A stretch of DNA of 18,670 bases. Origin: a virus. The translations under genes were made by a program, and so were the position numbers. The notes under the pieces are model-generated. The model worked only from the letters and a program-made list of their open reading frames with translations, was not told where the DNA came from and did not search any database. Location of the stretch: UHGV virus genome UHGV-1662908. One strand, 5' to 3'. This document shows positions 408-18,670 of this stretch, piece after piece (position 1 is the stretch's first letter; every line of letters starts with the position of its first letter).

Positions 408-907
408 TGAGCGACTTATATTTCCCACGTAGCCTTAAGCCGGTGGTATCGAAAGGCTACTCAATGACCAGACGCAACAACGTCTGGAGCGTTGATTTAG
501 CCGGTGGCGGTGTGCGTCAGGGCCGCGACACGTATTACGACGTGTTCCCGATAAGCGTAACCCTGATTACATCAGCACTAGGGCGGCAGGCGTTTCTGTC
601 GTTCCTTGAGAAAGTCGATGGTGGTGCTTCAAGTTTCTGGATGGCGCATGACTTCGGCATGGGTATCGAGGATTATCAGGTAACTATCACGTCAACCATC
701 GCAGAGTCCACAGAAGATGGCATTAACTGGACGATTACTTTCACGGCAACCGCTGAGAAATCGCCGTTCCAGAACCTTGAGAATCAGTGCCTTGTTAACA
801 ATCTGCCCGATTTGTATGGTTGCTATGGTGACAGTCTGAGAGGTTTCCTTAAAGCCTACGGAACTGCACAATCAACGTTTCCACGAATTTGGGACCCGAT
901 GCAATGA
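407..907 (+). CDS. hypothetical minor tail / tail-tip protein (166 aa)
   Basis: ORF track 407..907 with ATG start; coupled to both neighbours by overlapping stop/start codons; position between structural protein end and tail-tip genes. Confidence 0.55.
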   Translation: MSDLYFPRSLKPVVSKGYSMTRRNNVWSVDLAGGGVRQGRDTYYDVFPISVTLITSALGRQAFLSFLEKVDGGASSFWMAHDFGMGIEDYQVTITSTIAESTEDGINWTITFTATAEKSPFQNLENQCLVNNLPDLYGCYGDSLRGFLKAYGTAQSTFPRIWDPMQ

Positions 908-1419
908 GCCAGGAATCAGTAGAAGCAGCCTATCGCCGTAAGCTGGCCTCAAATCCCGACGGCGAGATGGACTACATCACGTTGCAAATCAGCCATCCGT
1001 TGCTGTCAAAGACGTATTATCTTGTGCGCGGGCTACAGGAACTTACGGCGACACTGGAGACGGGCGAAACAATCACGTTCGAGCCAACCCCGATGGAAGC
1101 GGCGGGAGCCGCTAACAACAGTGATATGGACCAGACGACGACGTTCACTTTACCGGATATTCTCAATCAACTGGACGACGAGATGGATAAAATCCCGATG
1201 AGTAATACTGAGTTGCCGAAGTTTGTATTCCGCCGTTATGTCAGCACCGACCTGTCTTACCCAGCGGATGGTCCAGTCGCGTACGAGTTACAGGCCATCA
1301 ACCAGGAGAAAGGTGAATTCTCCGCGGATGTCGGTACACCTATGCTGAACCAACGAAGCACTGGTATACTGATGACACCTAAAGAAATACCGTTATTACG
1401 CGGCCTGTTGACCACATGA
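904..1419 (+). CDS. hypothetical minor tail protein (~171 aa)
   Basis: ORF track 889..1419 begins at a TTG; the first in-frame ATG (MSQESVEAAY...) is at 904 and overlaps the upstream stop as ATGA, so 904 is the likelier start. Confidence 0.5.
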   Translation: MSQESVEAAYRRKLASNPDGEMDYITLQISHPLLSKTYYLVRGLQELTATLETGETITFEPTPMEAAGAANNSDMDQTTTFTLPDILNQLDDEMDKIPMSNTELPKFVFRRYVSTDLSYPADGPVAYELQAINQEKGEFSADVGTPMLNQRSTGILMTPKEIPLLRGLLTT

Positions 1420-1781: not shown

Positions 1782-4327
1782 TCCTGCACTACACGCGAAA
1801 CGCAGATGGCGCTTTCGACCGCACAAAACACGTCGGGATGCCGATGGAGTTTGTCGTTAACCGTATCCCCGACGGCGTGCCGGTGCGCGTCTACCTCGGC
1901 GAGATTGGTGACGATACCGACGTAACTGACGACTTCGACGCGCTTAAAGACGAAGACGCGGTGTACCACATTATTGAGGGTGCTGGTGGTGGTATAGGTA
2001 ACGCTATTGGGAAGGTGTTTGGTTTTATCCTTAAGCCAATCGCTAAGTTGTTTGGTCTTAACCGGACACCTAATGCCGACTACACGGCGACTAACAATCA
2101 GACAACGTCACCGAACAACAGCCTTACCGACCGTTCCAACAAGCCGCGCCCTTACGAGCGCTCTTATGACATATGCGGGACTGTACAGACAATTCCTAAT
2201 GACCTGATGCAGACGTACAAGGCGTTCAACTCCACGGGCGCTTTGCTGGAGTATTCGTACTACGACGCAGGGCGCGGGCATCTGCATATTGAGGCCAATG
2301 GCGTCACAGAGGGTGACACCTTGATAAGCGACATCACGGGTTCCTCTGTTGCCGTGTATGCGCCGTATACTTCCCCTAACAACACCACATCCCCTCAACT
2401 ACAAATCGGCGACGTCATTGACCAGAAACTCTATGTGACATACTCCAATGATGACGTCGACGGCATTGTACTGAAAGCGCCAAACGACATCGGAGCTAAC
2501 CCAACCTCCGGCGGCACTGCCAAACGTATCTCAACCACCGGCTACATCTATGACCCGTCGGGCGACTCTGCTTTTTCTGAGTTTCTTAGTGTCGGTGATG
2601 TCGCGGTGCTGAGCAACTTTGACGTACGCGATGTCACTAACCTGAACGGCTCATTTGAGGTTTTATATGTCGACGACTTTGAGGTTCGGTTGTACGTCGG
2701 GAATATAGGTAACTGGGGCAATCTTAGTAATGGGCAGACTTACGCCCTGACAGAGCGTTCGGATACGTTTATAGGCCCGAGCAACACGTACGATGTGTCC
2801 CTGACCGACTGGTATTACATGGTGCGCGGAGAAGTTGACCGAGTGCTCGCCAACGTTGCTGGTCAGAACGGCCTCTACAAATACGATGGCGGCTATAACC
2901 GCACCAGCGTAACCGTAGAACTCCAGTACCAGATGATTGATTCCCGGCGCAACCCGTTGGGTGATATTTACACGGTACAGGCTACAATTACGGGCAACAA
3001 TACCGACTACGTCGGCACGTCTATCTACGGTCAACTGCCGACCGCGTCCCGTTTCCGCGCCCGCATGCGCCGTATAACGAATTTCGATAAGGACTATGAC
3101 GGTACAGTAAGCGACGAGATAACGTTCATCAACCTGTACGGGCAGTCCCTGGACACAACCCCACACTACGGCAACAGAACTACCGTACATTGCGCCCGTA
3201 AACAGACGCCACGTGCCGCAAGTATCGACAACCCGGAACTGCGCATGATCGCAACCGAGATGTGTTACAAATACCGGGGAAATGGGGTATTTGATACAGT
3301 AATGACGCCGAATACGCAGGCGGTACAATCGCTAATCAGACTGGCGCGTGACCCGGCGGTGGGCAATCTGGAACTCACAACGGCAAACATGGATAAGTTA
3401 CTATCCGTGCAGGAAGAAATTGAGTCCTATTTCGGAAGTGAATTGGCGGGGCAGTTCTGCTACACATTCGACGACTACGACACAACTATGCAGGACATCG
3501 TTCAGACTATAGCTGAAGCCGTGTTCTGTACCGCGTACCGTAAAGGCGCGGATATTATGCTGCGATTCGACCGCCCAGTCGCTGGGCCAGAGATGGTGTT
3601 CACCCACCGCAGCAAAACTACCGGGACGGAGAAATGGTCCCGCACGTTCAACGATTCGACAACCTACGATAGTCTGTCGTTCTCGTACATCGACCCGGAT
3701 ACTAACGTACAGGAAACGATTTATATCCCGGAAGAACTTGGGGTAAACACCGAAGAATACGAATCGAAGGGGGTGCGCAACTACCAGCAAGCGTACTGGC
3801 TTGCGTGGCGTCGCTACCAACGCAACGCGTTAAGTAAAGTTGTCGTAGAGTTCGAAGCTACCGAAGAGGGGGCACTCGCTACACCGGGCGGCGTAATCAG
3901 TGTGGTTAAAGGCTCGCGTATCGCGCCACAGGACGGCTATGTTGTTGCCGTTAATGGGCTTACGCTGACGCTGTCTCAACCTGTTACGTTTACTCCGGGG
4001 GATGACCACTCCATCATCCTCAAGAAGCGCGACGGCTCGGTGCAGAGTATCTCTGTTATCAAAGGAAGTCACGACCGTGAGGTGGTTATGCTCTCCGCGC
4101 CGGAGGAGGCAATCTACACAGGGAATAGTGCACTAAAAACTGAGTTTTCATTCGGCAACGAAGCAAGGCATAATGCTCAGAAGATAGTTGTTTCCTCAAT
4201 CGACCCGGGCGACGACCGCACGGTCAGGATTACTGGTTACAACTATGACGATGGATTCTATAAATACGACGGCGTCGCGCCATACGGCAGCGGTTTCTCC
4301 GACGGGTACAGCAACGGTTTTAATTAA
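1772..4327 (+). CDS. large tail-tip / host-specificity-like structural protein (851 aa in track; start uncertain)
   Basis: Long ORF 1772..4327 directly after the small tail proteins and before the tail fiber. Track start is a TTG overlapping the upstream stop; first ATGs are at about 1838 and 1844 (MPMEF). A Gly-rich hydrophobic stretch lies near the N-terminus (GGGIGNAIGKVFGFILKPIAKLFG). Confidence 0.6.
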   Translation: MAIILHYTRNADGAFDRTKHVGMPMEFVVNRIPDGVPVRVYLGEIGDDTDVTDDFDALKDEDAVYHIIEGAGGGIGNAIGKVFGFILKPIAKLFGLNRTPNADYTATNNQTTSPNNSLTDRSNKPRPYERSYDICGTVQTIPNDLMQTYKAFNSTGALLEYSYYDAGRGHLHIEANGVTEGDTLISDITGSSVAVYAPYTSPNNTTSPQLQIGDVIDQKLYVTYSNDDVDGIVLKAPNDIGANPTSGGTAKRISTTGYIYDPSGDSAFSEFLSVGDVAVLSNFDVRDVTNLNGSFEVLYVDDFEVRLYVGNIGNWGNLSNGQTYALTERSDTFIGPSNTYDVSLTDWYYMVRGEVDRVLANVAGQNGLYKYDGGYNRTSVTVELQYQMIDSRRNPLGDIYTVQATITGNNTDYVGTSIYGQLPTASRFRARMRRITNFDKDYDGTVSDEITFINLYGQSLDTTPHYGNRTTVHCARKQTPRAASIDNPELRMIATEMCYKYRGNGVFDTVMTPNTQAVQSLIRLARDPAVGNLELTTANMDKLLSVQEEIESYFGSELAGQFCYTFDDYDTTMQDIVQTIAEAVFCTAYRKGADIMLRFDRPVAGPEMVFTHRSKTTGTEKWSRTFNDSTTYDSLSFSYIDPDTNVQETIYIPEELGVNTEEYESKGVRNYQQAYWLAWRRYQRNALSKVVVEFEATEEGALATPGGVISVVKGSRIAPQDGYVVAVNGLTLTLSQPVTFTPGDDHSIILKKRDGSVQSISVIKGSHDREVVMLSAPEEAIYTGNSALKTEFSFGNEARHNAQKIVVSSIDPGDDRTVRITGYNYDDGFYKYDGVAPYGSGFSDGYSNGFN

Positions 4328-4339
4328 AGAGGACTCTAT

Positions 4340-7213
4340 ATGTCAAGCGGATGCGGTGACGTTTTAAGCCTGGCGGATTTACAGACCGCCAAGAAACACC
4401 AGATTTTTGAGGCAGAGGTCATTACCGGTAAATCCGGTGGGGTTGCTGGGGGTGCTGACATTGACGAAGCAACGAACGCTGTAACAGGGCAGGTGCAAAA
4501 AACATTACCAGCTGTTCTTGATGATATTGCGTTGAATGTAGTGCCTTTTAGCAAACAATATTCGGACCTTGCTGCCGCGCAGGCAGATATAGCTAATATC
4601 CCAGTAAATTCCTATACGTATATCAGAGATTCGTCTGGCAGCGCATTGGCGCTGGAATACCAGAACGTAGCCGGGGTCTTGACAGCCACAGGCCGAAAAA
4701 TGCCTTCACGGGCATCAATGGTCATTGGTTCTGTAGATTCGTGGGTTAATAACAATCTTTACTCATTTGATTCATTTTCATCGCCAAACGAAAACTTGGT
4801 ATCAATGAGCGTAGCCGCAGTAGATACGATTGCGTACCGAGAGGCCTACTCCGCTTTATTATCTACAGTTGCAGCGGGCGACATTATCACTGTCCGTTAT
4901 AGATACAGCGGAACCGGAGGCGCCCCAACCATTGGATTAAAAACATCGCTGAACGGCACATTTGTGAGTAATCAGCCAACGCTGACCTCTTCAAATGACT
5001 GGCAGGAAGTGCAGCTTACCGCTACCGCAGCTACCGCAACGCTCCTGGCTATCGGGGTGAACACAAGGCTTGCAACCACTGTTCAGTTATCGATTATCGC
5101 CTACGCATCGAAGAAAAATGCTATTACCACGGCAATTCTTAACTCACTGGATAGCATTTCCAGTTTAAATGGGAAGGTGCGTATTGGTTCTGTGGATTCG
5201 TGGGTTAATAATACCGGATATCCATTTTCCACATTTTCCCAGGTCAATAACAACCGCGTGAACTACGCTAATGCTTCAGGCGTATACTCTGAAATGTACG
5301 CCAACGCTTCCGTTCCTTCAGGCGAGAAGGTAACGCTCAGCTACTCGCTGGATATTACTTCAGGTCGTTTATTCGCTCGACTTGCCAACGGTAGCAACTG
5401 GACCAGCGACGAAGTCCAATTGACTAATGGTGATGCACGGCAGACTGTTATCCTGACAGCTACGGCAGACACTAAGCAGATTAAAATCTACTCAAAAGCA
5501 GAAGTTTCATCAGGGAGTATATTTGCAGAGGTAAACTTCGGACAGAAAAACTCACTGACCGAACAGATTGACGCGCTATATTCTTCAATCGCTTCAGCCA
5601 ATGCTGTTCTTGCTATTTTGTCACAAGATTCTACCTTCGACTCTTTCGTTAACAGTTCACCTTACACCTATACTCTTTCCGATGCCGGAACCGCGTATAA
5701 GCAATTGATGAACACAATCACCCCAGTATCTGGCGTTTCAACCGTCAAGATGATGTATAAAATTGCATCATCTAATGCGGCACTGAAGATTCAGAGTCGT
5801 AATGGTAATGCGTGGGGGGCAAATGAAAAGGCTCTCATTGCAGACGGTAATTATCATGAAGTGGACCTCGCATTAGCTTCGGGGCAGGTTTTCTCTGGGT
5901 GGGGTGTGTACTCAGCAGCAAAATCAGGTGGGTATCAAGCCGATGTGACGATGATTCCTGTTTCTGCCGATGGGGTATTTTTCACCCCAGCCACAGCTAT
6001 TTTGTACGGACTCATGACGTCCGCAGATTCACTCAACACCAGAGTTACCGCACTGGAAAACGGGCAGGTCACTAACCAGAATACTGACGTTATTTTCCCG
6101 GCATATTTTTATGCTGTAGATGGTCGTCCATTGCGTTTTTATGGTGCCAATATGGTCAGTGGTGCTCGCCCGTGGCGAAATAATACTGACGTTGTGCTGT
6201 CCAGTCATGGGTATGAGGGAAAGCCAGTATTACTTAAAAATGTTGTGCCTGACGCAACGATAATGCCGTCAGAAATCAACGGACCAACGCTGAACGTTAA
6301 TGCTCGTGCTGATGGTTCTGGGGATGTATTTCGTAAGAAAGCTGCGTTCACCAAACTGGCGGCGACTCAGACCGGTAACGTGAAAGTCGCTACTATTATG
6401 GACTCACTTGGTGAACGTTGCGTTCCTTGGTTGTACTTCGCCATCAATGCCACTGGTGCTGCTTACGTAGGTGCTGGTTCCCGAACCACTCGTGGTATAA
6501 CGGACGAGGGAGGTTACACTCTGCCAAATACACCGTCAGCAGGCATTCCTTTTGACGGTCGTGGTGGCTGGACGACGTTCGACTACATCGGGAAGACGCA
6601 GAAGACGAACTTCTCGCAGCCATTCCTGCGTGACGCTACGAGCACAGATTTCTCTGCTTATCCGCAGTATTGCTTCGATAAAGCCTACTCCGGGCAGAGC
6701 TATGCAGATAACCCTAATCTGGAGGGGTATCACATTTTTGATGTGACGGCATGGATGGCAGCGGCTGGCGTGAGCGCATCAGACAAACTGGTTGTGGTTA
6801 TCCAACTGGGATACAATGATTTGTATTATAACTACACCCCGCAGCAGACCGCCGACGCGCAGGAGTTCATGATTGCGAAATTCCGTGAGAAAATAGCGGA
6901 TTCCCGTTTCGTTATTTCTCACCAGGCATTTGGCTGGTCGGGAGCAAGTGCACCCAAGAATTGGCCTGACTTTGCAAAATGGATAACGGAGAAGGTCAGG
7001 AAGTTCGACAATCGCCTTGGCGAGAAAATAATTGTGGCGCCTGCATGGGCGCAGATGAGCTACAAATACGGAATGAACGAAACTATCACAACAACCAGTG
7101 ATACTGGTGTCCAGACTGTATCGTTACCTGATGACGTCCATCCCGGAGAGCTTGGCGGGGCGCAGTGGGGTGACGCTCTGGTTGCTCCTGTTCTGGCGGC
7201 GTGGAGTTTATAA
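4340..7213 (+). CDS. tail fiber / tailspike protein with tandem internal repeat domains and C-terminal SGNH (GDSL-like) esterase domain
   Basis: ORF track 4340..7213; ATG preceded by AAAGAGGA RBS. Repeated segments GSVDSWVNN(N/T)..(F)S.FS at aa ~129 and ~282, with a weaker third copy at ~aa 430. C-terminal ~280 aa carry SGNH-like blocks: IMDSLGE (block I-like), LGYND (block III GxND), DDVHPGE (block V DxxH). Confidence 0.7.
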   Translation: MSSGCGDVLSLADLQTAKKHQIFEAEVITGKSGGVAGGADIDEATNAVTGQVQKTLPAVLDDIALNVVPFSKQYSDLAAAQADIANIPVNSYTYIRDSSGSALALEYQNVAGVLTATGRKMPSRASMVIGSVDSWVNNNLYSFDSFSSPNENLVSMSVAAVDTIAYREAYSALLSTVAAGDIITVRYRYSGTGGAPTIGLKTSLNGTFVSNQPTLTSSNDWQEVQLTATAATATLLAIGVNTRLATTVQLSIIAYASKKNAITTAILNSLDSISSLNGKVRIGSVDSWVNNTGYPFSTFSQVNNNRVNYANASGVYSEMYANASVPSGEKVTLSYSLDITSGRLFARLANGSNWTSDEVQLTNGDARQTVILTATADTKQIKIYSKAEVSSGSIFAEVNFGQKNSLTEQIDALYSSIASANAVLAILSQDSTFDSFVNSSPYTYTLSDAGTAYKQLMNTITPVSGVSTVKMMYKIASSNAALKIQSRNGNAWGANEKALIADGNYHEVDLALASGQVFSGWGVYSAAKSGGYQADVTMIPVSADGVFFTPATAILYGLMTSADSLNTRVTALENGQVTNQNTDVIFPAYFYAVDGRPLRFYGANMVSGARPWRNNTDVVLSSHGYEGKPVLLKNVVPDATIMPSEINGPTLNVNARADGSGDVFRKKAAFTKLAATQTGNVKVATIMDSLGERCVPWLYFAINATGAAYVGAGSRTTRGITDEGGYTLPNTPSAGIPFDGRGGWTTFDYIGKTQKTNFSQPFLRDATSTDFSAYPQYCFDKAYSGQSYADNPNLEGYHIFDVTAWMAAAGVSASDKLVVVIQLGYNDLYYNYTPQQTADAQEFMIAKFREKIADSRFVISHQAFGWSGASAPKNWPDFAKWITEKVRKFDNRLGEKIIVAPAWAQMSYKYGMNETITTTSDTGVQTVSLPDDVHPGELGGAQWGDALVAPVLAAWSL
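4724..4753 (+). repeat. direct repeat copy 1 inside tail fiber gene (~29 bp, near-identical to copy at ~5183)
   Basis: Encodes IGSVDSWVNN; read as attggttctgtagattcgtgggttaataa versus attggttctgtggattcgtgggttaataa in copy 2 (about 28/29 identical). Coordinates derived from codon positions. Confidence 0.6.
5183..5212 (+). repeat. direct repeat copy 2 inside tail fiber gene
   Basis: Second occurrence of the same ~29-bp segment, ~459 bp downstream of copy 1, encoding the same IGSVDSWVNN peptide. Confidence 0.6.
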
Positions 7214-10394: not shown

Positions 10395-10522
10395 TCCAGC
10401 ACCCACAGATAAATTGCGATGAACATACCCAATACGGTGACAATCATGCCGTATTGACCCTCGTGACAGTAGACACCGGCGGCGAATCCCGCCAGTAATA
10501 CGATAATCAGTTTACTTAGCAT
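10391..10522 (-). CDS. small hydrophobic membrane peptide (~43 aa)
   Basis: Not in track. My translation MLSKLIIVLLAGFAAGVYCHEGQYGMIVTVLGMFIAIYLWVLE; its ATG overlaps the last codons of the DNA polymerase gene and its stop overlaps the next ATG. Confidence 0.4.
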   Translation of the reverse strand: MLSKLIIVLLAGFAAGVYCHEGQYGMIVTVLGMFIAIYLWVLE

Positions 10523-13500
10523 AACGTTTCATCTCCGCACCTTCCGCTACAAGCGGGAACCCCTCAGCCCACTCAGGCAGCGAACACATTAATTTTTCCA
10601 GTTCAGCCACCGTGTAATCAGGCGTATCTGGAGTTTCACACACCAGTTCATCGTGTACCGAAAGCACGATGGGATACCCGCCACCCTCAACATTAATCAT
10701 CGCATATGCTAGTAAATCACGGCACAACGCCTGAACAATGTTTTCACAGGCTTTGCCGCCGTGGGTGTACAGGGTAGTCCATTGGCGGGTTAACTGGTTT
10801 TCACCTTGGTACTTGATTCGCACATTCGTGTTTACCCGTCCGTCTTCGTCTGTTTCTTTTGTCACGCTAACGCCGATCCCCGGATACGAGAGGATACGGC
10901 CTGACGGCAACTCCATACACAACCACCAACCGGGAACCTTCCTACCTGATGAATCGGTTTCTACTGTTCTCCAGATTCGGATAGCGCGCTCGCCATTCTT
11001 GCGCAAGTGTGCTCCCGCCCAAAATTCACGACCAGGATTGCGCACAGCGGCTAAAATTCCGTCTTTAAGGTCCCGCCAGAACGCTACTGTTTCCGGGTGT
11101 GACTCGCGCCACATACGCTTGATCGCGTCACATGTGCGCCACACTTTCTTGTCCAGAATATACGATGGTCTGTCGTCCTTTTCACCTGGATGCGGTGGCC
11201 GCTTTGCTTCCTGGATGCGTGCCCACTCGTACCCGCGTGCGGTAGCGGCCCATATGTGGCCCGGGAATGTACCGTCCATTGTTTTTGCCATCTCAATAAG
11301 GTCAAGACCTAAGTTTTTAGCGAACGTAACGAACGCTCCGACGCCTCCCTCGTAGCCGAGGCCAAGCTCGCAGTTATGCGCCACAAGAAAGCCAGAGTCT
11401 GAGGCTATAAGAAAACGGTTGCCGTCTTCCACATCAATCAGGTCGTACACCGGCTCGCAGTAGGTTAATTTCCCGCTCAAGTTCAGCAATGCGGGCAACG
11501 GCTGCATCATACTTTCGTTGAAGCTCGGGTATTTGCCGTCTGTTTCGGCAGTTTTCAGAACGGCTGACAAACCGAATGTTTCCAGGTTCGTAGTTACCGT
11601 CTGTGTCGATTCTATCCATTTCGAGGTTCGGGTCATCCCAGCTTTCCAGAGTTTGAACATATCTAAGAAAAGACCTTTTATCAGTCCTCCACTGGTCGAA
11701 TACCGTGATGCCTCTTGCCCCATAGTTTTTATAACCCTTATCCCTGGGGCTTGTTGTTCGCGTGATAGCCGCGGACAGCCGGTTGAGTAATCGCGTTCTG
11801 TGCGCATCATCCGGCATTGCGTCTTCGTAGCAGAAATACTGTTTACGATATTTTTTTGTTGCTTCAAGGGCGCAGCGGTTGCATTGAGTGGTTTTACCCG
11901 CTCTGACGTTGTCATAATAGACCCGCCCCGGCATCCCCCCGCAATCACATTGGACGAGTAGTTGTCTTTGGCCTTGTCGTTTTGGTAACTCGCGCAGGAT
12001 AACCAAGCGTCCATACCTCTCTCCAGGGCGAGGCCCATCATATATCTGTTTGAAGCGAGTTGCTTTGCCTGCTTCCAGGAATGCGCCAAGATTTTGTGGT
12101 CTTCGGTCATTAGCACCCCGTCCACATTTATTACCGGTTTCCACCCCATAAGGTGCGCGCCTTTTGTATTCACCCATTTTTCACCGCTCCATACTTTATC
12201 TGTTGATGTAACCGCCATAATATCCTTAAATCCGCCATCGGTCAAAACTTGGGTATGACGGTGAAGGCACGCTTTACCAATCTGGCGCAAGTCTTTACGT
12301 TCTTTCTTAATGTCGTCTGGGTCCATGCCAAACATCTTACCTGCGGTTACGCAATAAATATCCAGCCCGGCGCGGAACGTATCTAGCGCGGTTTCTTCGC
12401 CTGCAAGCCACGCAAGCCCTCGGCCCTCAACGTTAGAATAATCGGCAACAACAAACTTATGTCCTGCTTCCGGTATGATGCAGCTACGCACCGTCGATGC
12501 CGTTAATTTAGCGACATCAAAACGGCGGTGCGCGCGGCCCTTAAGTAACGCTGAAATGCCTTTATCCAGTTCATCATCGTGATAGTACCCGCGCGCGAGG
12601 TTCTGCGGTTGGAAGCCTTTACCCGCCCATCGCAGAGTGCGTTTTGCCCCGCCGTACTGCAAGCAACCGCGGCGTCGGTCGTCAGAAGAGCGGCCCAACA
12701 GCAGTGGGTTATATTTCGTTGATGCGGTGGACGCGGCCCCGAGGCGCATTTCTATAATCATGCGAGCATCGTCGGGTAAATCATCGTCTGCCAGCAGGTC
12801 ATTCAGTGTCGACTTCTGTGCGTTATGGATGCGGTGCGCGGGTGCGAGTTCACGCAGAATCGGAAGGAAGTCTTTACCAGTAAGCGAGCCGCCGTATTTT
12901 CGTTGGGCTTCTTCCTGTAACTGTGCCTTGTGCTTCTCCACGGCTTCAATCGCGGCTTCCGCCAGTGCGACGTCAACCTTAAACCCGCGGTCATTGATTA
13001 ACTGGTCCAGCTCCAGTACACGGTCCTCGAACTCGGAGTTACCCCAACGCGGCAGTTTATGGAAGACTTCACGCATCGCGGTGATGTCGCTCACGGCGTA
13101 CTTGATGAACAGCGCCCACTCGTCAGGGTGTGTTTCTGCGGTGTATCGACGGATTTTGTAGTTCTTCGGCGTCGGTTTAGAGAAACGCTGAATCAGCGCC
13201 TTGCCGCGTTTGTCTTTTGCATTGTCCGCCGATACGCCCAGCACTTCGCACAGCGCATCAAGTGACCCAGGCAGCGCGTGACGAAACGCTCGAATCATAG
13301 TGTCGATGGTATTTCTCGGTTTGATATCCACACCCCAGCAGTGCTTCATAACTAGCCTGTCGAACATTAAAAAGTTATGGCCTACAATTCTCATACGCCC
13401 GCGCATAACATTACGTAGCGCAACGCGTAGGCTTATTGGCATTACTGGTTCGGAAGTGCAATCCCATACTTCTACAGGCCCATCATCAACGGCGTATGTA

Positions 13501-13607
13501 CATATTATAATCTCAGTTGTTGCGTGTTCCGCGTATGCGTATGACCCTACTTTCTTTAGGTCAGCTTCAGAGAATGTTTCGGTATCAAGATACAATAAAT
13601 TAGCCAT
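10512..13607 (-). CDS. family A DNA polymerase with N-terminal 3'-5' exonuclease domain, interrupted by an intein (precursor 1031 aa)
   Basis: ORF track 10512..13607. Exo motifs YLDTETFS, GHNFLMFD, YAVSDI; polymerase motif A VVADYSNVEGRG; motif B split as RQIGKA / CELGLGYEGG; motif C VLSVHDELV. Confidence 0.9.
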   Translation of the reverse strand: MANLLYLDTETFSEADLKKVGSYAYAEHATTEIIICTYAVDDGPVEVWDCTSEPVMPISLRVALRNVMRGRMRIVGHNFLMFDRLVMKHCWGVDIKPRNTIDTMIRAFRHALPGSLDALCEVLGVSADNAKDKRGKALIQRFSKPTPKNYKIRRYTAETHPDEWALFIKYAVSDITAMREVFHKLPRWGNSEFEDRVLELDQLINDRGFKVDVALAEAAIEAVEKHKAQLQEEAQRKYGGSLTGKDFLPILRELAPAHRIHNAQKSTLNDLLADDDLPDDARMIIEMRLGAASTASTKYNPLLLGRSSDDRRRGCLQYGGAKRTLRWAGKGFQPQNLARGYYHDDELDKGISALLKGRAHRRFDVAKLTASTVRSCIIPEAGHKFVVADYSNVEGRGLAWLAGEETALDTFRAGLDIYCVTAGKMFGMDPDDIKKERKDLRQIGKACLHRHTQVLTDGGFKDIMAVTSTDKVWSGEKWVNTKGAHLMGWKPVINVDGVLMTEDHKILAHSWKQAKQLASNRYMMGLALERGMDAWLSCASYQNDKAKDNYSSNVIAGGCRGGSIMTTSERVKPLNATAAPLKQQKNIVNSISATKTQCRMMRTERDYSTGCPRLSREQQAPGIRVIKTMGQEASRYSTSGGLIKGLFLDMFKLWKAGMTRTSKWIESTQTVTTNLETFGLSAVLKTAETDGKYPSFNESMMQPLPALLNLSGKLTYCEPVYDLIDVEDGNRFLIASDSGFLVAHNCELGLGYEGGVGAFVTFAKNLGLDLIEMAKTMDGTFPGHIWAATARGYEWARIQEAKRPPHPGEKDDRPSYILDKKVWRTCDAIKRMWRESHPETVAFWRDLKDGILAAVRNPGREFWAGAHLRKNGERAIRIWRTVETDSSGRKVPGWWLCMELPSGRILSYPGIGVSVTKETDEDGRVNTNVRIKYQGENQLTRQWTTLYTHGGKACENIVQALCRDLLAYAMINVEGGGYPIVLSVHDELVCETPDTPDYTVAELEKLMCSLPEWAEGFPLVAEGAEMKRYAK
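11373..12269 (-). mobile_element. intein (299 codons) inserted in motif B of the DNA polymerase
   Basis: Boundaries computed from track coordinates: Cys447 (CLHRHTQVLTDGGF, block A) to Asn745 (VYDLIDVEDGNRFLIASDSGFLVAHN, blocks F/G), followed by +1 Cys; block B TEDHKILA at aa ~501-508. Confidence 0.75.
11434..12177 (-). CDS. HNH homing-endonuclease-like ORF lying inside the intein but in a different reading frame from the polymerase/intein frame
   Basis: ORF track 11434..12177 (247 aa); frame differs from the polymerase ORF ((13607-12177) mod 3 = 2). Contains GRLVIL...CDCGG...QCNRC and GYKNYGARGITVFDQW...MDRIDTDGNYEPGNIRFVSRSENCRNR, typical of phage HNH endonucleases. Recognisable part starts ~aa 50; the first ~50 codons overlap intein blocks A/B. 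Confidence 0.6.
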   Translation of the reverse strand: MGEYKRRAPYGVETGNKCGRGANDRRPQNLGAFLEAGKATRFKQIYDGPRPGERYGRLVILRELPKRQGQRQLLVQCDCGGMPGRVYYDNVRAGKTTQCNRCALEATKKYRKQYFCYEDAMPDDAHRTRLLNRLSAAITRTTSPRDKGYKNYGARGITVFDQWRTDKRSFLRYVQTLESWDDPNLEMDRIDTDGNYEPGNIRFVSRSENCRNRRQIPELQRKYDAAVARIAELEREINLLRAGVRPD

Positions 13608-14382: not shown

Positions 14383-15684
14383 TTATTCTAAATCTTCTTC
14401 ACTAACCTGATTCCACTCAGGCCGTTTGTCGTCTGCCGTTGCGACGCATGGCGCGCCTGGCTTACGAGTAACTTTCGTTTCCAGTTCGGCCCACATCCTG
14501 GCATACGCGCCTTTTAACACTTTTTCCGCTTCCGTTGGTGACATAACAGATTTCTTTGTTAGCAAATCCATGTCTACGTTATGGCGCGCTGCTAGTTCTT
14601 CGACCCATTTTTCATCACTCCAGCTACGATTACCCGGACGACCTTCAACCAGCTTATACCCCGGCACTTTCTTACCGGAATGCAAAGCGGCGGCCATAGC
14701 TTTCTCAACCTTGTCGATGTGCTGGCGCAACAACGGCAACTTCTCGTACTCAGCTACGAGTTGCTCTGGTGTCAGTTCCAGTGCAAAGTCGTCCTCCAGT
14801 TCTTCTGCCAGTACTGCGTTAACCGTCTTTGTACGCACGGCGCATTGTTCAGAGAACCGACACCACTGGCAGCCATCGACCGACGGCCTGAAGTCCGACG
14901 CTTTCAGGTTCTTCTTGCCGCGGAAATATGCATCAAGCGCCAACAGTGCACGTTTCCGTGCGAACTTAGCGAACAGTTCCAGACCTTCAACCGAGATGTC
15001 CCACTCCGACGCCCCACCAGCGTACGGTTGGAAGATTACCAGACGAACAGTTGTTATGTTATAACGTCTCTTGAGACGGCGATAAACACCGAGAGCGTAA
15101 AGCATAAGCTGTTTGTTTTCTTTCGCTTCGACACGATGTCGTCCTGTTTTCAGGTCGCCAATAATGAGCATGTGCTCGTCGGTGTTTGCCATCTCCTGTA
15201 CGGCAACAAGGTCAGAAGTTCCGAATGTCTGTAGTTCTTCTTGCCGTCCGTTAGGGCTATGAATGTAGCCAGGATGCAATACCTCAGTAAGATTGACGCA
15301 CATTTCCAGCTTGGCGTAAGTAGCCACGTCGATAATAGCTTTGCAGTAATCGGTGTACTTACGCACCTGCTCAATCATGTCAGCCGTAATCAGTACCGCG
15401 CCTTTCATCGGGCTGATTAGCGCCTTAATCTGGCCTTTGCCTTCATCCAGCACGTAAGCGCCAACTTCACGCCCTAACGGCAATGCAGTGCCACGGATAT
15501 AGGCGTTTAGATGGACCTCCGCTATGGTGTGCATGGCTGTGCCTAATACCGCAGCTTTACCGGACGTGTTAGGAATATCTTTCTCACAGGCCAGTGATGC
15601 AGCACAGCTTAGCCACTTTTTAGCGCCTGACGGTGACAGTAAGGCGTGCACATCGTTATTGCCGCCACGTTCTTTAAGAATCAT
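14383..15684 (-). CDS. PD-(D/E)xK nuclease of the DUF2800 / Cas4-RecB-like type (433 aa)
   Basis: ORF track 14383..15684. N-terminal HALLSPSGAKKWLSCAAS; IIGDLKTG...QLMLYALG matches a D..K...Q..Y nuclease motif; one N-terminal Cys plus a C-terminal CQWCRFSEQC cluster is consistent with a Cas4-like Fe-S site. Confidence 0.6.
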   Translation of the reverse strand: MILKERGGNNDVHALLSPSGAKKWLSCAASLACEKDIPNTSGKAAVLGTAMHTIAEVHLNAYIRGTALPLGREVGAYVLDEGKGQIKALISPMKGAVLITADMIEQVRKYTDYCKAIIDVATYAKLEMCVNLTEVLHPGYIHSPNGRQEELQTFGTSDLVAVQEMANTDEHMLIIGDLKTGRHRVEAKENKQLMLYALGVYRRLKRRYNITTVRLVIFQPYAGGASEWDISVEGLELFAKFARKRALLALDAYFRGKKNLKASDFRPSVDGCQWCRFSEQCAVRTKTVNAVLAEELEDDFALELTPEQLVAEYEKLPLLRQHIDKVEKAMAAALHSGKKVPGYKLVEGRPGNRSWSDEKWVEELAARHNVDMDLLTKKSVMSPTEAEKVLKGAYARMWAELETKVTRKPGAPCVATADDKRPEWNQVSEEDLE

Positions 15685-16178
15685 TTCTCAGCTCCGTTAA
15701 CTGTAAACCCATATTTAATCTCGGCTTGCCTACGAGCCTTAGCCGCGTTCTCTAACTTATCGTAAGCCCCTAAATAAATCGGCCTGCCGTCTACATAAAT
15801 TCTAGCGACCCACTTACCGTAGCGTTTATGAAACCCAACACCTTTAACCCCTGAAGTATTGTCGGTCCGTATGTTTGTGCCGTGTGCGATACTTCCCCGA
15901 CGCATTTTTATAAGATTTTCTATTCTGTTATCAGTTCTATCTTTATTTTTATGACGAATTACTTCCCCGGGCGCTATCACCCCGTTAAACATCTCCCAAA
16001 CTACGTGGTGGATAAGTTTAGTAGTCCCGTTAAAACGTAGTATTTTAAATTCACTCCCGTCGTTGTCCTCCCTCGTACTGCCAGCTTCTTGCCCTATTTT
16101 TACAGATTTTGACGGACTTATTTTCCAAAATAATTTACCGGTATCAGGGTCGTAGTCAAAAACTTCATGCCAGTTCAT
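15681..16178 (-). CDS. free-standing HNH homing endonuclease with C-terminal AP2-like DNA-binding domain
   Basis: ORF track 15681..16193; likely start is the ATG (MNWHEV) at 16178, overlapping the upstream stop (ATGA). HNH motif HHVVWEMFNG...IRHKNKDRTDNRIENL; AP2-like SGVKGVGFHKRYGKWVARIYVDGRPIYLGAYDKLENAAKARRQAEIKYG. Confidence 0.7.
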   Translation of the reverse strand: MNWHEVFDYDPDTGKLFWKISPSKSVKIGQEAGSTREDNDGSEFKILRFNGTTKLIHHVVWEMFNGVIAPGEVIRHKNKDRTDNRIENLIKMRRGSIAHGTNIRTDNTSGVKGVGFHKRYGKWVARIYVDGRPIYLGAYDKLENAAKARRQAEIKYGFTVNGAEK

Positions 16179-16447
16179 ACCCTGCTCTCCCACTGGTCAA
16201 TTAAATGTCGTGTCTTATGTTCGCAGTGCATAGCCCAGCTATACATCGACTCGAAGACATAAAAGTCAGGCTTGACGAACGTCGTGCGCTTAATCTGAGA
16301 CACGTGACGGCCTATATCTTTAGGCCATGGTACTTTGCCTAAGTACGCCATCTCTTCCATCTGGTGAGCACCGGACGGCGCACGTAACAGCCATAGCGCC
16401 TCTGTGGTATCCCGCCTGTCTACGGCGCGGTAGAGTTGGTAAATCAT
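16175..16447 (-). CDS. hypothetical protein (90 aa)
   Basis: ORF track 16175..16447; GAGGG RBS ~8 nt upstream of the ATG; stop overlaps the HNH-AP2 start. Confidence 0.5.
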   Translation of the reverse strand: MIYQLYRAVDRRDTTEALWLLRAPSGAHQMEEMAYLGKVPWPKDIGRHVSQIKRTTFVKPDFYVFESMYSWAMHCEHKTRHLIDQWESRV

Positions 16448-17012: not shown

Positions 17013-17043
17013 AACTATAATAGCGAACTATTCACGTGTCAAC
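17013..17043 (-). promoter_or_regulatory. sigma70-like promoter C (minus strand): TTGACA - 17 bp - TATAGT, within the divergent region shared with the HTH regulator gene
   Basis: Minus-strand reading gttgacacgtgaatagttcgctattatagtta; about 30-60 nt upstream of the acidic protein gene. A partial extra copy of the spacer motif (actattcacatatcaac) lies ~35 bp to the right. Coordinates approximate. Confidence 0.55.
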
Positions 17044-17322: not shown

Positions 17323-17338
17323 CGCCCCTTTCTTTTTA
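17311..17338 (+). terminator. rho-independent terminator after the HTH gene
   Basis: Hairpin AAGGGG ... CCCCTT overlapping the stop codon, followed by TCTTTTT; lies between the convergent HTH gene and the minus-strand 104-aa gene. Coordinates approximate. Confidence 0.55.
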
Positions 17339-17650
17339 TTGCAACTTATCGAGTTCTTCCAAATTCTTAACCGTGTGTTGCACGTTCAGGTACTGAATCC
17401 AGGCCAGAAACCACACACTTACAGGAAAACTTATTACAATAGTTATCGCGATAATCAACTTGAAAAGGCACTTTATAATCTCCGCCAGCGTCATATCTAA
17501 AATGTCTTTAAACTCCGCAAAAATCCCCGCCGTGTAAACACAAAAAGTCCACCAGTGGCCGCTTACCGCGGAAACACATGTCAGGTATGACGGGCGGTAT
17601 CCTGCCTTCACTGCTTTAAATGGGTTATCTATAAAATCGTAGATATTCAT
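17336..17650 (-). CDS. hypothetical membrane protein (104 aa)
   Basis: ORF track 17336..17650; hydrophobic C-terminal segment (LFKLIIAITIVISFPVSVWFLAWI); start overlaps the stop of the upstream ATPase gene. Confidence 0.5.
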   Translation of the reverse strand: MNIYDFIDNPFKAVKAGYRPSYLTCVSAVSGHWWTFCVYTAGIFAEFKDILDMTLAEIIKCLFKLIIAITIVISFPVSVWFLAWIQYLNVQHTVKNLEELDKLQ

Positions 17651-18670
17651 TCCAAATCCTCCTCTGTCACTGTTAACATTTCATTCGGTTCGTATATTGT
17701 CTTCGGAATCTTGTTATCCGTTATCCGGGTGTTCAGCCGGTAACGACCCGGGATTATCTGATTGTTTTCGTCAGTCCCGGGTACGAGATACCCGGCCTCA
17801 ACCATTTTCTTAATCTTCCCGCGTTCTATGGCTTCTTTGGAGTTGAACGCCTTTGCGTTAGGGTCAGACTGTGCTAGCTTATTCGCTGCGGCTACCGTGA
17901 TACCTTCGTTGCCTTTGTAAGTTCCTTCCGCCAGTTCAAACGCTGCGAGTATCGTAGCCTCTGAACTGTTGACAGCGTTCTCTACAGTTTTGCGTACGTT
18001 TTCTTTACCTTCCTTTGTCAGCCCTTCTTCCCGCTCTTTCTCCTCGTCGGTCTTGAACGGCTCGAAGCCCCACGGCATCAGCACAAGCGCCTTGTGTGGC
18101 TCCGGCAGGTCGAGGTTTACGATTGTGCCGTATTCCTCGGTGCCGCCAGGGAACTCAACCGCGCGGTACTCTTTCGGCGGCGGCGCTTCACGGAACTGTA
18201 CAGACTCCAGCACCATACCAACCGTCTTCTGTTGCGGTCCGTGTTTGAATTTAGAGTGGTATACGTTTATCTGGCGGTCTGTTGCACGCTCAATTGTCAG
18301 TTCTACGTCTACACCTGCATACAGCGCCCCGCTGCCACGGGCCTTCTTTCCACCTTTCGGCGTATGGTGGACGACGCCTACCGCGGCTTTAGTCGCATCA
18401 CGTACTTCTTTCAGGATGGCAATAACTTTACCCATGCCGATTGCCGTTGATGAACTGTTCTCATCGAACTTATCAATCGTCAGAGCCAGGGTCTGGTTAA
18501 GGGTGTCGAACGCGACCATCCCAATTGGCTCGTCGCCAGCGGTTTCACGCATCAACTTAATCAGGTTTTTTGAGGACTCAGAGGACGAGTTACCGGAACC
18601 GGTAAAGGCTGATTTCGTCGTTGAGGGGTACATGCCGTCGGATTGTATCTGGGATATTGTCGGGGAATCC
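17647..18670 (-). CDS. RecA-like ATPase resembling the helicase domain of phage/plasmid primase-helicases (AAA_25/RepA-like); 5'-truncated by the window edge
   Basis: Track ORF 17647..18633, but the frame stays open to the window end, so the true start is outside. GVVHHTPKGG resembles the His-rich motif of DnaB/RepA-like ATPases; the Walker A region is presumably upstream. Confidence 0.5.
   Translation of the reverse strand, partial: DSPTISQIQSDGMYPSTTKSAFTGSGNSSSESSKNLIKLMRETAGDEPIGMVAFDTLNQTLALTIDKFDENSSSTAIGMGKVIAILKEVRDATKAAVGVVHHTPKGGKKARGSGALYAGVDVELTIERATDRQINVYHSKFKHGPQQKTVGMVLESVQFREAPPPKEYRAVEFPGGTEEYGTIVNLDLPEPHKALVLMPWGFEPFKTDEEKEREEGLTKEGKENVRKTVENAVNSSEATILAAFELAEGTYKGNEGITVAAANKLAQSDPNAKAFNSKEAIERGKIKKMVEAGYLVPGTDENNQIIPGRYRLNTRITDNKIPKTIYEPNEMLTVTEEDLE

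Follow-up and report, generated by a model that had tools for sequence, protein, structure and literature searches.

Does a gene that has the domains of a homing endonuclease, and the patchy distribution of an inserted element, still encode a nuclease? The question is raised by an open reading frame (ORF) at 15681..16178, minus strand, in an 18,670-nucleotide (nt) stretch of the virus genome UHGV-1662908; this whole stretch is referred to below as the window. Its source is a Kagunavirus (Guernseyvirinae, K1G-like coliphage), and it is about 90% identical to its best relatives. A first-pass annotation had read the ORF as a free-standing HNH-AP2 homing endonuclease gene in a hotspot of mobile elements. 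We found that the gene is an optional insertion of a known kind, that the predicted active site lacks both protein ligands of the canonical one-metal site, and that the altered site is itself conserved among the known copies. With a probability of roughly 0.55, we read the product as a binding-competent, catalytically crippled derivative that is kept by selection and exchanged by homologous recombination in conserved flanks.

Results

Domain architecture and active site

The features of the gene that carry the argument are the following, with lengths in amino acids (aa) and window coordinates.

15681..16178, minus strand: HNH-AP2 ORF of 165 aa, ATG start at 16178, HNH_3 + AP2 architecture
15879..16016, minus strand: HNH_3-like beta-beta-alpha core, residues 55-100
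15951..15956, minus strand: codons Arg75-His76 (CGT CAT), where the family consensus is Asp-His (I-HmuI D74-H75)
15888..15890, minus strand: codon Ile97 (ATC), at the position of the metal-binding helix Asn (I-HmuI N96)
15711..15860, minus strand: AP2-type DNA-binding domain, residues 107-156

The two-domain HNH_3 + AP2 architecture proposed in the first-pass annotation is supported at the level of both sequence and fold. Residues 55-90 match HNH_3 (Pfam PF13392) with an E value of 6e-13 and 48.7 bits, above the cutoff of 24.8, and residues 109-152 match AP2 (Pfam PF00847) with an E value of 4.7e-6 and 27.2 bits, under the cutoff of 33.3; the protein matches PHROG 99, "HNH endonuclease," at 1.7e-50. 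The C-terminal part directly matches the AP2 domain of plant WRI1 (phmmer; E, 1.2e-5), and a profile of 31 family sequences matches the AP2 domains of WRI1, TEM1, and ERF (2.6e-7) as well as, with its N-terminal part, I-HmuI (E, 1.1e-6). The HNH_3 domain shows the beta-beta-alpha fold behind an I-PpoI-like sheet, and the AP2 domain shows one helix against a three-stranded sheet. The family is large, comprising 63,052 cluster representatives at an E value of ≤1e-3, with tblastn matches to the protein in 2,724 phage records. HNH-AP2 homing endonucleases have been assigned to group 2 of the His-Me finger nucleases (PMC5714182) and named "IPA-HNH" in ICP1 and other phages (PMC10448857); the gene is certainly a member of this free-standing, I-HmuI-like HNH_3 + AP2 homing endonuclease lineage.

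The catalytic residues of I-HmuI are D74, H75, and N96 (PMC12724721). In His-Me finger nucleases, the key residues are the His of strand 1 and an Asn or His of the helix, the latter binding the metal directly, and the residue preceding the catalytic His is often a metal ligand as well (PMC5714182). In the family profile, the consensus DH...DN...NL......N..N aligns to I-HmuI D74 H75 ... N83 ... N87 L88 ... N96 .. N99, and the window protein has Arg75, His76, Asn84, Asn88, Ile97, and Gly100 at the equivalent positions. The general base His76 (I-HmuI H75, at the end of strand 1) is invariant in the alignment, as are the structural loop residues Asn84 and Asn88 (I-HmuI N83 and N87). In all six copies of the gene, however, Arg75 and Ile97 replace the equivalents of the metal ligands D74 and N96, and Gly100 stands in place of the next conserved helix Asn (I-HmuI N99). 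The 23 residues from Asn88 to Gly110 are ungapped and equal in length in a Jerseyvirus relative, and the model has a helix at residues 94-100, which puts position 97 in its first turn. The first-pass annotation had made its reading depend on the HNH catalytic residues, and these are only partly present, the His being kept but the two ligands not.

The 186 best family members yielded 203 HNH_3 domain instances, of which 185 have Asp75, 200 His76, 202 Asn88, 164 Asn97, and 171 Asn100. The canonical D-H-N-N combination accounts for 157 of the 203 instances, and R-H-I-G was seen in this Kagunavirus clade only. All three other Guernseyvirinae proteins associated with the same insertion slot keep D-H...N..N. 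Degenerate modules (IRH...GSIH and the like) were also found in tandem proteins such as P0110, P0185, and P0074, where they form additional N-terminal modules next to a canonical HNH_3-AP2 unit and presumably add DNA binding, not catalysis. Because both protein ligands of the one-metal site are gone, the nuclease activity of the window protein is doubtful; its loss, and the nature of any function retained, are inferred.

Conservation of the altered core

Across the six copies, pairwise ratios of nonsynonymous to synonymous divergence (dN/dS) range from 0.04 to 0.13, with synonymous divergence (dS) reaching 0.45, and neither frameshifts nor stops are present. Variable positions number 2 of 49 in the core (residues 53-101), 9 of 52 in the N-terminal part, and 8 of 64 in the linker and AP2 domain; the stretch GEVIRHxNKDRTDNRIENLIKMRRGSIAHG, which includes both substituted ligands, is invariant but for x. 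The altered HNH core is itself conserved, and the gene is under purifying selection and is not a decaying pseudogene.

The insertion and its distribution

The junction that holds the gene is delimited by the following features.

Within 15681..16178, minus strand: optional cassette, the 494 bp between the two ATGA overlaps
16175..16178, minus strand: ATGA overlap of the 90-aa gene stop and the HNH-AP2 gene start, the left insertion edge
15681..15684, minus strand: ATGA overlap of the HNH-AP2 gene stop and the exonuclease gene start, the right insertion edge
16175..16447, minus strand: upstream neighbour, a conserved 90-aa gene (PHROG 4965)
14383..15684, minus strand: downstream neighbour, a DUF2800/PD-(D/E)XK exonuclease gene of 433 aa (PHROG 69)

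The ORF coordinates bear out the earlier description of a free-standing gene that has the 90-aa gene on one side and the DUF2800 nuclease gene on the other and overlaps each of them by ATGA, and comparison with relatives confirms that it is an insertion. In K1H, the 90-aa and exonuclease genes overlap directly by ATGA, forming an empty site; at this junction the window is exactly 494 bp longer, and ATGA is recreated at each end of the insertion. Both flanks are present in 40 IMG/VR relatives, and the junction is empty in 23 of these and holds the HNH-AP2 gene in 2. The full-length gene is present in 4 of 448 related GenBank records, which represent three phages (EcoPhCCP1, ZCEC5, and LM02P1) with 89 to 97% nt identity; only about six genomes with this gene are known. 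Its composition is foreign, with a G+C content of 42.4% overall and 39.8% at third codon positions, compared with 50.5% for the window and 52 to 60% at third positions of the flanking genes.

The slot 15684/16175 is hypervariable and serves as a general cassette hotspot. Other inserts at the same junction measure 137, 155, 200, 205, 257, 333, 344, and 481 bp, and they include at least four unrelated small ORFs, of 45 aa (MFVIMYS...), 51 aa (MTNRKARLL...), 85 aa (MNWVSVNE...), and 114 aa (MTDKWWLNL...), which occur singly or combined (loci L003 to L045), are mostly joined to their neighbours by ATGA overlaps, and are all under purifying selection. Two further HNH-AP2 types use the slot, one in Kagunavirus BCH953P1 (P0005; 46% identical to the window protein) and one in Jerseyvirus phages such as UPWr_S2 (QNJ54361.1; 54%). 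Both have the same architecture and the same insertion point after the 90-aa gene, and their first 30 residues are nearly identical to those of the window protein; unlike it, they retain the Asp as well as both Asn residues of the helix.

Tests for homing

Among the six carriers, dS is 0.11 to 0.45 for the HNH-AP2 gene and 0.40 to 0.97 for the first 360 nt of the exonuclease gene, and the 90-aa gene is similar to the HNH-AP2 gene. We considered lower divergence than the flanks as proof of mobility and rejected it, as the non-nuclease control cassettes A, C, and D behave alike: their dN/dS is 0.03 to 0.32, and their dS is usually no higher than that of the exonuclease gene. Because these cassettes show the same pattern, patchiness and relative conservation are properties of the slot in these mosaic genomes and not specific evidence of homing. 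Alignments of 900 bp per side at 43 to 45 loci showed no co-conversion and no gene-linked flank allele separating carriers from noncarriers, and the carriers differ from one another right at the junction, in the opening 60 nt of the exonuclease gene. Identity among carriers is 89 to 97% for the HNH-AP2 gene, 89 to 95% for the 90-aa gene, and 93 to 95% for the single-stranded DNA (ssDNA)-binding gene, except for 67.6% to EcoPhCCP1 in the last of these. The HNH-AP2 gene diverges in step with the 90-aa and ssDNA-binding genes, with no signature of a sweep. The insertion proposed in the first-pass annotation stands, but its patchy distribution does not show homing, as cassettes that encode no nuclease are equally patchy.

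Several further observations concern the slot. The first 80 nt of the gene (16099..16178, about 27 aa) are 78 to 84% identical at the DNA level across the three HNH-AP2 types of the slot, the rest of the proteins being less than 55% identical, and at least 48 Salmonella phage records share these 80 nt; the 5' end of the slot HNH-AP2 genes is either strongly constrained or repeatedly exchanged. In BCH953P1 (L049), the exonuclease gene lies between two canonical HNH-AP2 paralogues, one at 2622..3098 (46% identity to the window protein) and one at 890..1366 (39%). At 4270..4470 in locus L014, an in-frame deletion has reduced a BCH953P1-type gene to a 66-aa remnant in which residues 1-51 are fused to residues 146-162, so that the HNH core is missing together with most of the AP2 domain. 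Exonuclease codons 3 and 4 (15673..15678) read TTA AAG in 15 of 24 empty junctions and in 0 of 20 junctions occupied by any cassette type, which have CTN AAA or similar there (Fisher's P of ~1e-5, not corrected for phylogeny); this bias could stem from a recombination boundary, a target or immunity polymorphism, or the context of translational coupling. Finally, the exonuclease gene of the window is a divergent allele, with 80 to 85% nt identity to those of all HNH-AP2 carriers, whereas the 90-aa and ssDNA-binding genes near it are 89 to 95% identical in most comparisons.

Operon context and expression

The gene lies in a minus-strand replication/recombination module in which a 163-aa gene, the 90-aa gene, the HNH-AP2 gene, the exonuclease gene, and the genes for a Gp2.5-like ssDNA-binding/annealing protein and DNA polymerase follow one another in this order. 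One additional feature is needed here.

17014..17042, minus strand: best promoter-like site, 11/12 matches, upstream of the 163-aa gene; a consensus match only

The operon of the 163-aa, 90-aa, HNH-AP2, and exonuclease genes likely starts at this predicted promoter. A promoter-like site of comparable quality was not found just upstream of the HNH-AP2 gene, and a promoter of its own was rejected, the gene containing only weak 9/12 matches inside it and the strong sites lying elsewhere, one upstream of the 163-aa gene and the other beyond the exonuclease gene. Since ATGA overlaps are present on both sides, expression within the operon is probably achieved by translational coupling.

At the far edge of the window, the C-terminal part of the helicase-primase (17336..18670, minus strand) shares only 34% identity with its EcoPhCCP1 counterpart and looks like a mosaic replacement. 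A split helicase-primase at 17336..18633 was considered and rejected, as the frame is open to the window edge and the C-terminal part is a divergent allele. An extra 104-aa ORF after the helicase-primase belongs to PHROG 2638.

The polymerase insert

The first-pass annotation had counted an "intein endonuclease," here that of the DNA polymerase gene, as the other homing-type endonuclease. At a distance of about 3.5 kb there is indeed an ORF of the HNH family, but it is nested in another frame and is not an in-frame domain. The polymerase ORF (10512..13607, 1031 aa) contains a 299-aa in-frame insert relative to K1H, with the following parts.

11373..12269, minus strand: intein-like insert, polymerase residues 447-745, beginning with Cys and ending with His-Asn followed by Cys
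11434..12177, minus strand: nested ORF of 247 codons in another frame (PHROG 374, "HNH endonuclease," 9.5e-47)

Exactly this insert segment is annotated as an intein in vB_SenS-Ent1, and the nested ORF is annotated as a gene in phage SO-1. Pfam and PDB sequence searches detected no Hint, LAGLIDADG, or HNH domain in the polymerase-frame insert, and an endonuclease domain in that frame was rejected; NCBIfam has no model for the nested ORF, nor for the HNH-AP2 or 90-aa gene. In a codon-position analysis of five colinear copies with 197 variable sites, the ends of the insert vary at third positions of the polymerase frame (14 of 18 sites in the first 90 nt and 12 of 13 in the last 87 nt), while in the centre (nt 181-810) variation falls mainly at polymerase-frame second positions, which serve the other frame as third positions; none of the five copies has a stop in the polymerase frame. 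Selection acts on the polymerase frame at the ends of the insert and on the other frame in its centre, and the predicted arrangement is that of an intein within which a homing endonuclease gene is nested out of frame.

This intein has a signature of recent spread, which the HNH-AP2 gene lacks, since its identity reaches 99.4% between phages in which the genes around it share only about 90% (coliphage KMB36, 99.4%; Salmonella phage FSL SP-101, 99.0%). The 897-bp insert was found in 166 phage records, mostly of Salmonella Jerseyvirus, with some of Kagunavirus and, at 83%, of Dhillonvirus EP23 and SO-1. The C-extein (10512..11372) is 76% identical to that of K1H and the N-extein (12270..13607) 91%, an asymmetry expected if homing drags donor sequence in on one side.

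Discussion

The conserved loss of both metal ligands can be explained by the following course of events: (i) the ancestor would have been a homing endonuclease that invaded the slot in Guernseyvirinae; (ii) in this lineage, the one-metal active site would have been dismantled by replacement of the Asp before the catalytic His with Arg and of the helix Asn with Ile, and conventional Mg/Mn-dependent nuclease activity is probably gone; (iii) the protein would still fold and bind a specific DNA site, using AP2 together with the I-PpoI-like sheet of HNH_3, and selection would keep it as a DNA-binding protein; (iv) ordinary homologous recombination between conserved flanking sequences would carry the gene from genome to genome, as it would the slot's other cassettes. 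A precedent for a His-Me finger that has lost catalysis and kept DNA binding is provided by SMAD MH1.

Several points weigh against this account. The loss of function is deduced from homology to a single solved enzyme, and some His-Me nucleases use one protein ligand plus water molecules (PMC5714182); in the window protein, His99, Asp80, or Glu87 might serve as substitute ligands. The full conservation of His76, Asn84, and Asn88, in a core that varies less than any other part of the protein, would also be seen in an active enzyme, and the divergence of the gene, somewhat lower than that of the exonuclease gene, is compatible with past mobility. Any alternative function, lastly, would be putative.

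These points lead to the strongest competing explanation, a still active homing endonuclease, probably an I-HmuI-like nickase with a noncanonical metal site, which we regard as possible although we do not expect it. Such an enzyme would cut the empty junction or an adjacent gene of coinfecting Kagunaviruses and be copied in by recombinational repair, and the neighbouring exonuclease and ssDNA-annealing proteins would help the copying. It would fit a family full of presumed active homing endonucleases, the precise insertion, sporadic distribution, and foreign composition of the gene, its strong purifying selection with an intact His76, Asn84, and Asn88, and its lower divergence relative to the exonuclease flank, and across the superfamily the residue before the catalytic His is, after all, only often a metal ligand. 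The helix Asn, however, is a key residue, and it is Ile in every copy, just as the Asp is Arg; there is no co-conversion tract or linked flank allele within 900 bp; cassettes that encode no nuclease share the patchiness, the dN/dS, and the lower divergence than the exonuclease gene; and near-identical spread across diverged genomes, so evident for the intein, is not seen.

It is improbable that the gene is a functionless homing endonuclease gene in neutral decay on its way to deletion: the lost catalytic residues, the remnant in L014, and the truncated HNH genes that are common at shared Skunavirus insertion sites (PMC12724721) would suit this explanation, but it is largely refuted by the dN/dS of 0.04 to 0.13 sustained over the observed dS, the intact frames, and the near-invariant core. 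That it is a conserved housekeeping HNH protein, such as a terminase-associated packaging HNH, and not a mobile-element gene is scarcely credible, for although phage HNH proteins with packaging roles exist, most close relatives lack the gene (23 of 40 loci with the operon intact), it lies in a replication/recombination operon and not beside the terminase, and it belongs to the I-HmuI/HNH_3-AP2 group and not to the GVE2/HK97 gp74 type.

If the protein is indeed a crippled, DNA-binding derivative, we would suggest, quite tentatively, that the Kagunavirus lineage has domesticated a homing endonuclease, which would have lost its metal site and kept its sequence-specific grip on DNA. Selection may maintain the protein as an "anti-homing" immunity factor that occupies and shields the junction of the 90-aa and exonuclease genes from the active HNH-AP2 endonucleases with which competing Guernseyvirinae target this slot, or as a regulator that controls the replication/recombination operon. 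If true, this would be a phage-scale snapshot of the transition from endonuclease to AP2 transcription factor that has been proposed for plants.

Neither the family nor the architecture nor the kind of insertion site is new, an orthologue has already been annotated, and a plain HNH-AP2 homing endonuclease gene is routine, as thousands exist. What is new is small, namely, a conserved active-site variant without both metal ligands and a control at the level of the slot. In the former, an "HNH endonuclease" label of the kind that pipelines and readers assign from a domain match alone hides the loss of two of three catalytic residues, and the latter, consisting of the non-nuclease cassettes, provides a built-in safeguard against reading patchiness or low divergence as homing in mosaic phages. 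Should a binding-only derivative be under selection here, the locus would offer a tractable case of homing endonuclease domestication, with canonical relatives in the same slot for comparison.

Comparison with known systems

The closest counterparts are the GenBank orthologues in EcoPhCCP1 (XHQ01495.1, "HNH endonuclease"), ZCEC5 (QBJ03004.1, "hypothetical protein"), and Kagunavirus LM02P1, with aa identities of 97.6%, 92.7%, and about 89%. Slot, 498-bp ORF (already annotated in GenBank for the first two), and R75/I97 are all as in the window, the copy in which is one more allele with no substantive difference from them. The wider IPA-HNH/HNH-AP2 class (PMC10448857, PMC5714182) is alike in its N-terminal HNH_3 and C-terminal AP2 domains, its free-standing genes, its position adjoining essential replication genes, its patchiness among relatives, and the frequent presence of other homing elements nearby; unlike the window clade, its typical members have D-H...N..N. 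I-HmuI, the nicking HNH homing endonuclease of Bacillus phage SPO1 (PDB 1U3E), is intron encoded, whereas the window gene is free-standing, and it has a C-terminal helix-turn-helix/NUMOD DNA-binding region where the window protein has AP2; its metal ligands D74 and N96 correspond to Arg75 and Ile97.

The I-HmuI-like HNH genes of lactococcal Skunavirus (PMC12724721) resemble the present case in that several distinct HNH genes use one insertion location, truncated copies are common, and the genes are concentrated in the replication module. They differ in keeping the D74/H75/N96 equivalents, in being without AP2, and in showing, for some, marker exclusion in vivo. "Hidden HNH" insertions (PMC11855218) share with the polymerase insert an out-of-frame HNH ORF, to which the polymerase insert adds intein splicing blocks. 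Finally, SMAD MH1 and the plant and apicomplexan AP2 factors are cellular regulators with demonstrated functions, next to which the window protein stands as a putative phage example of a nuclease fold that has given up catalysis.

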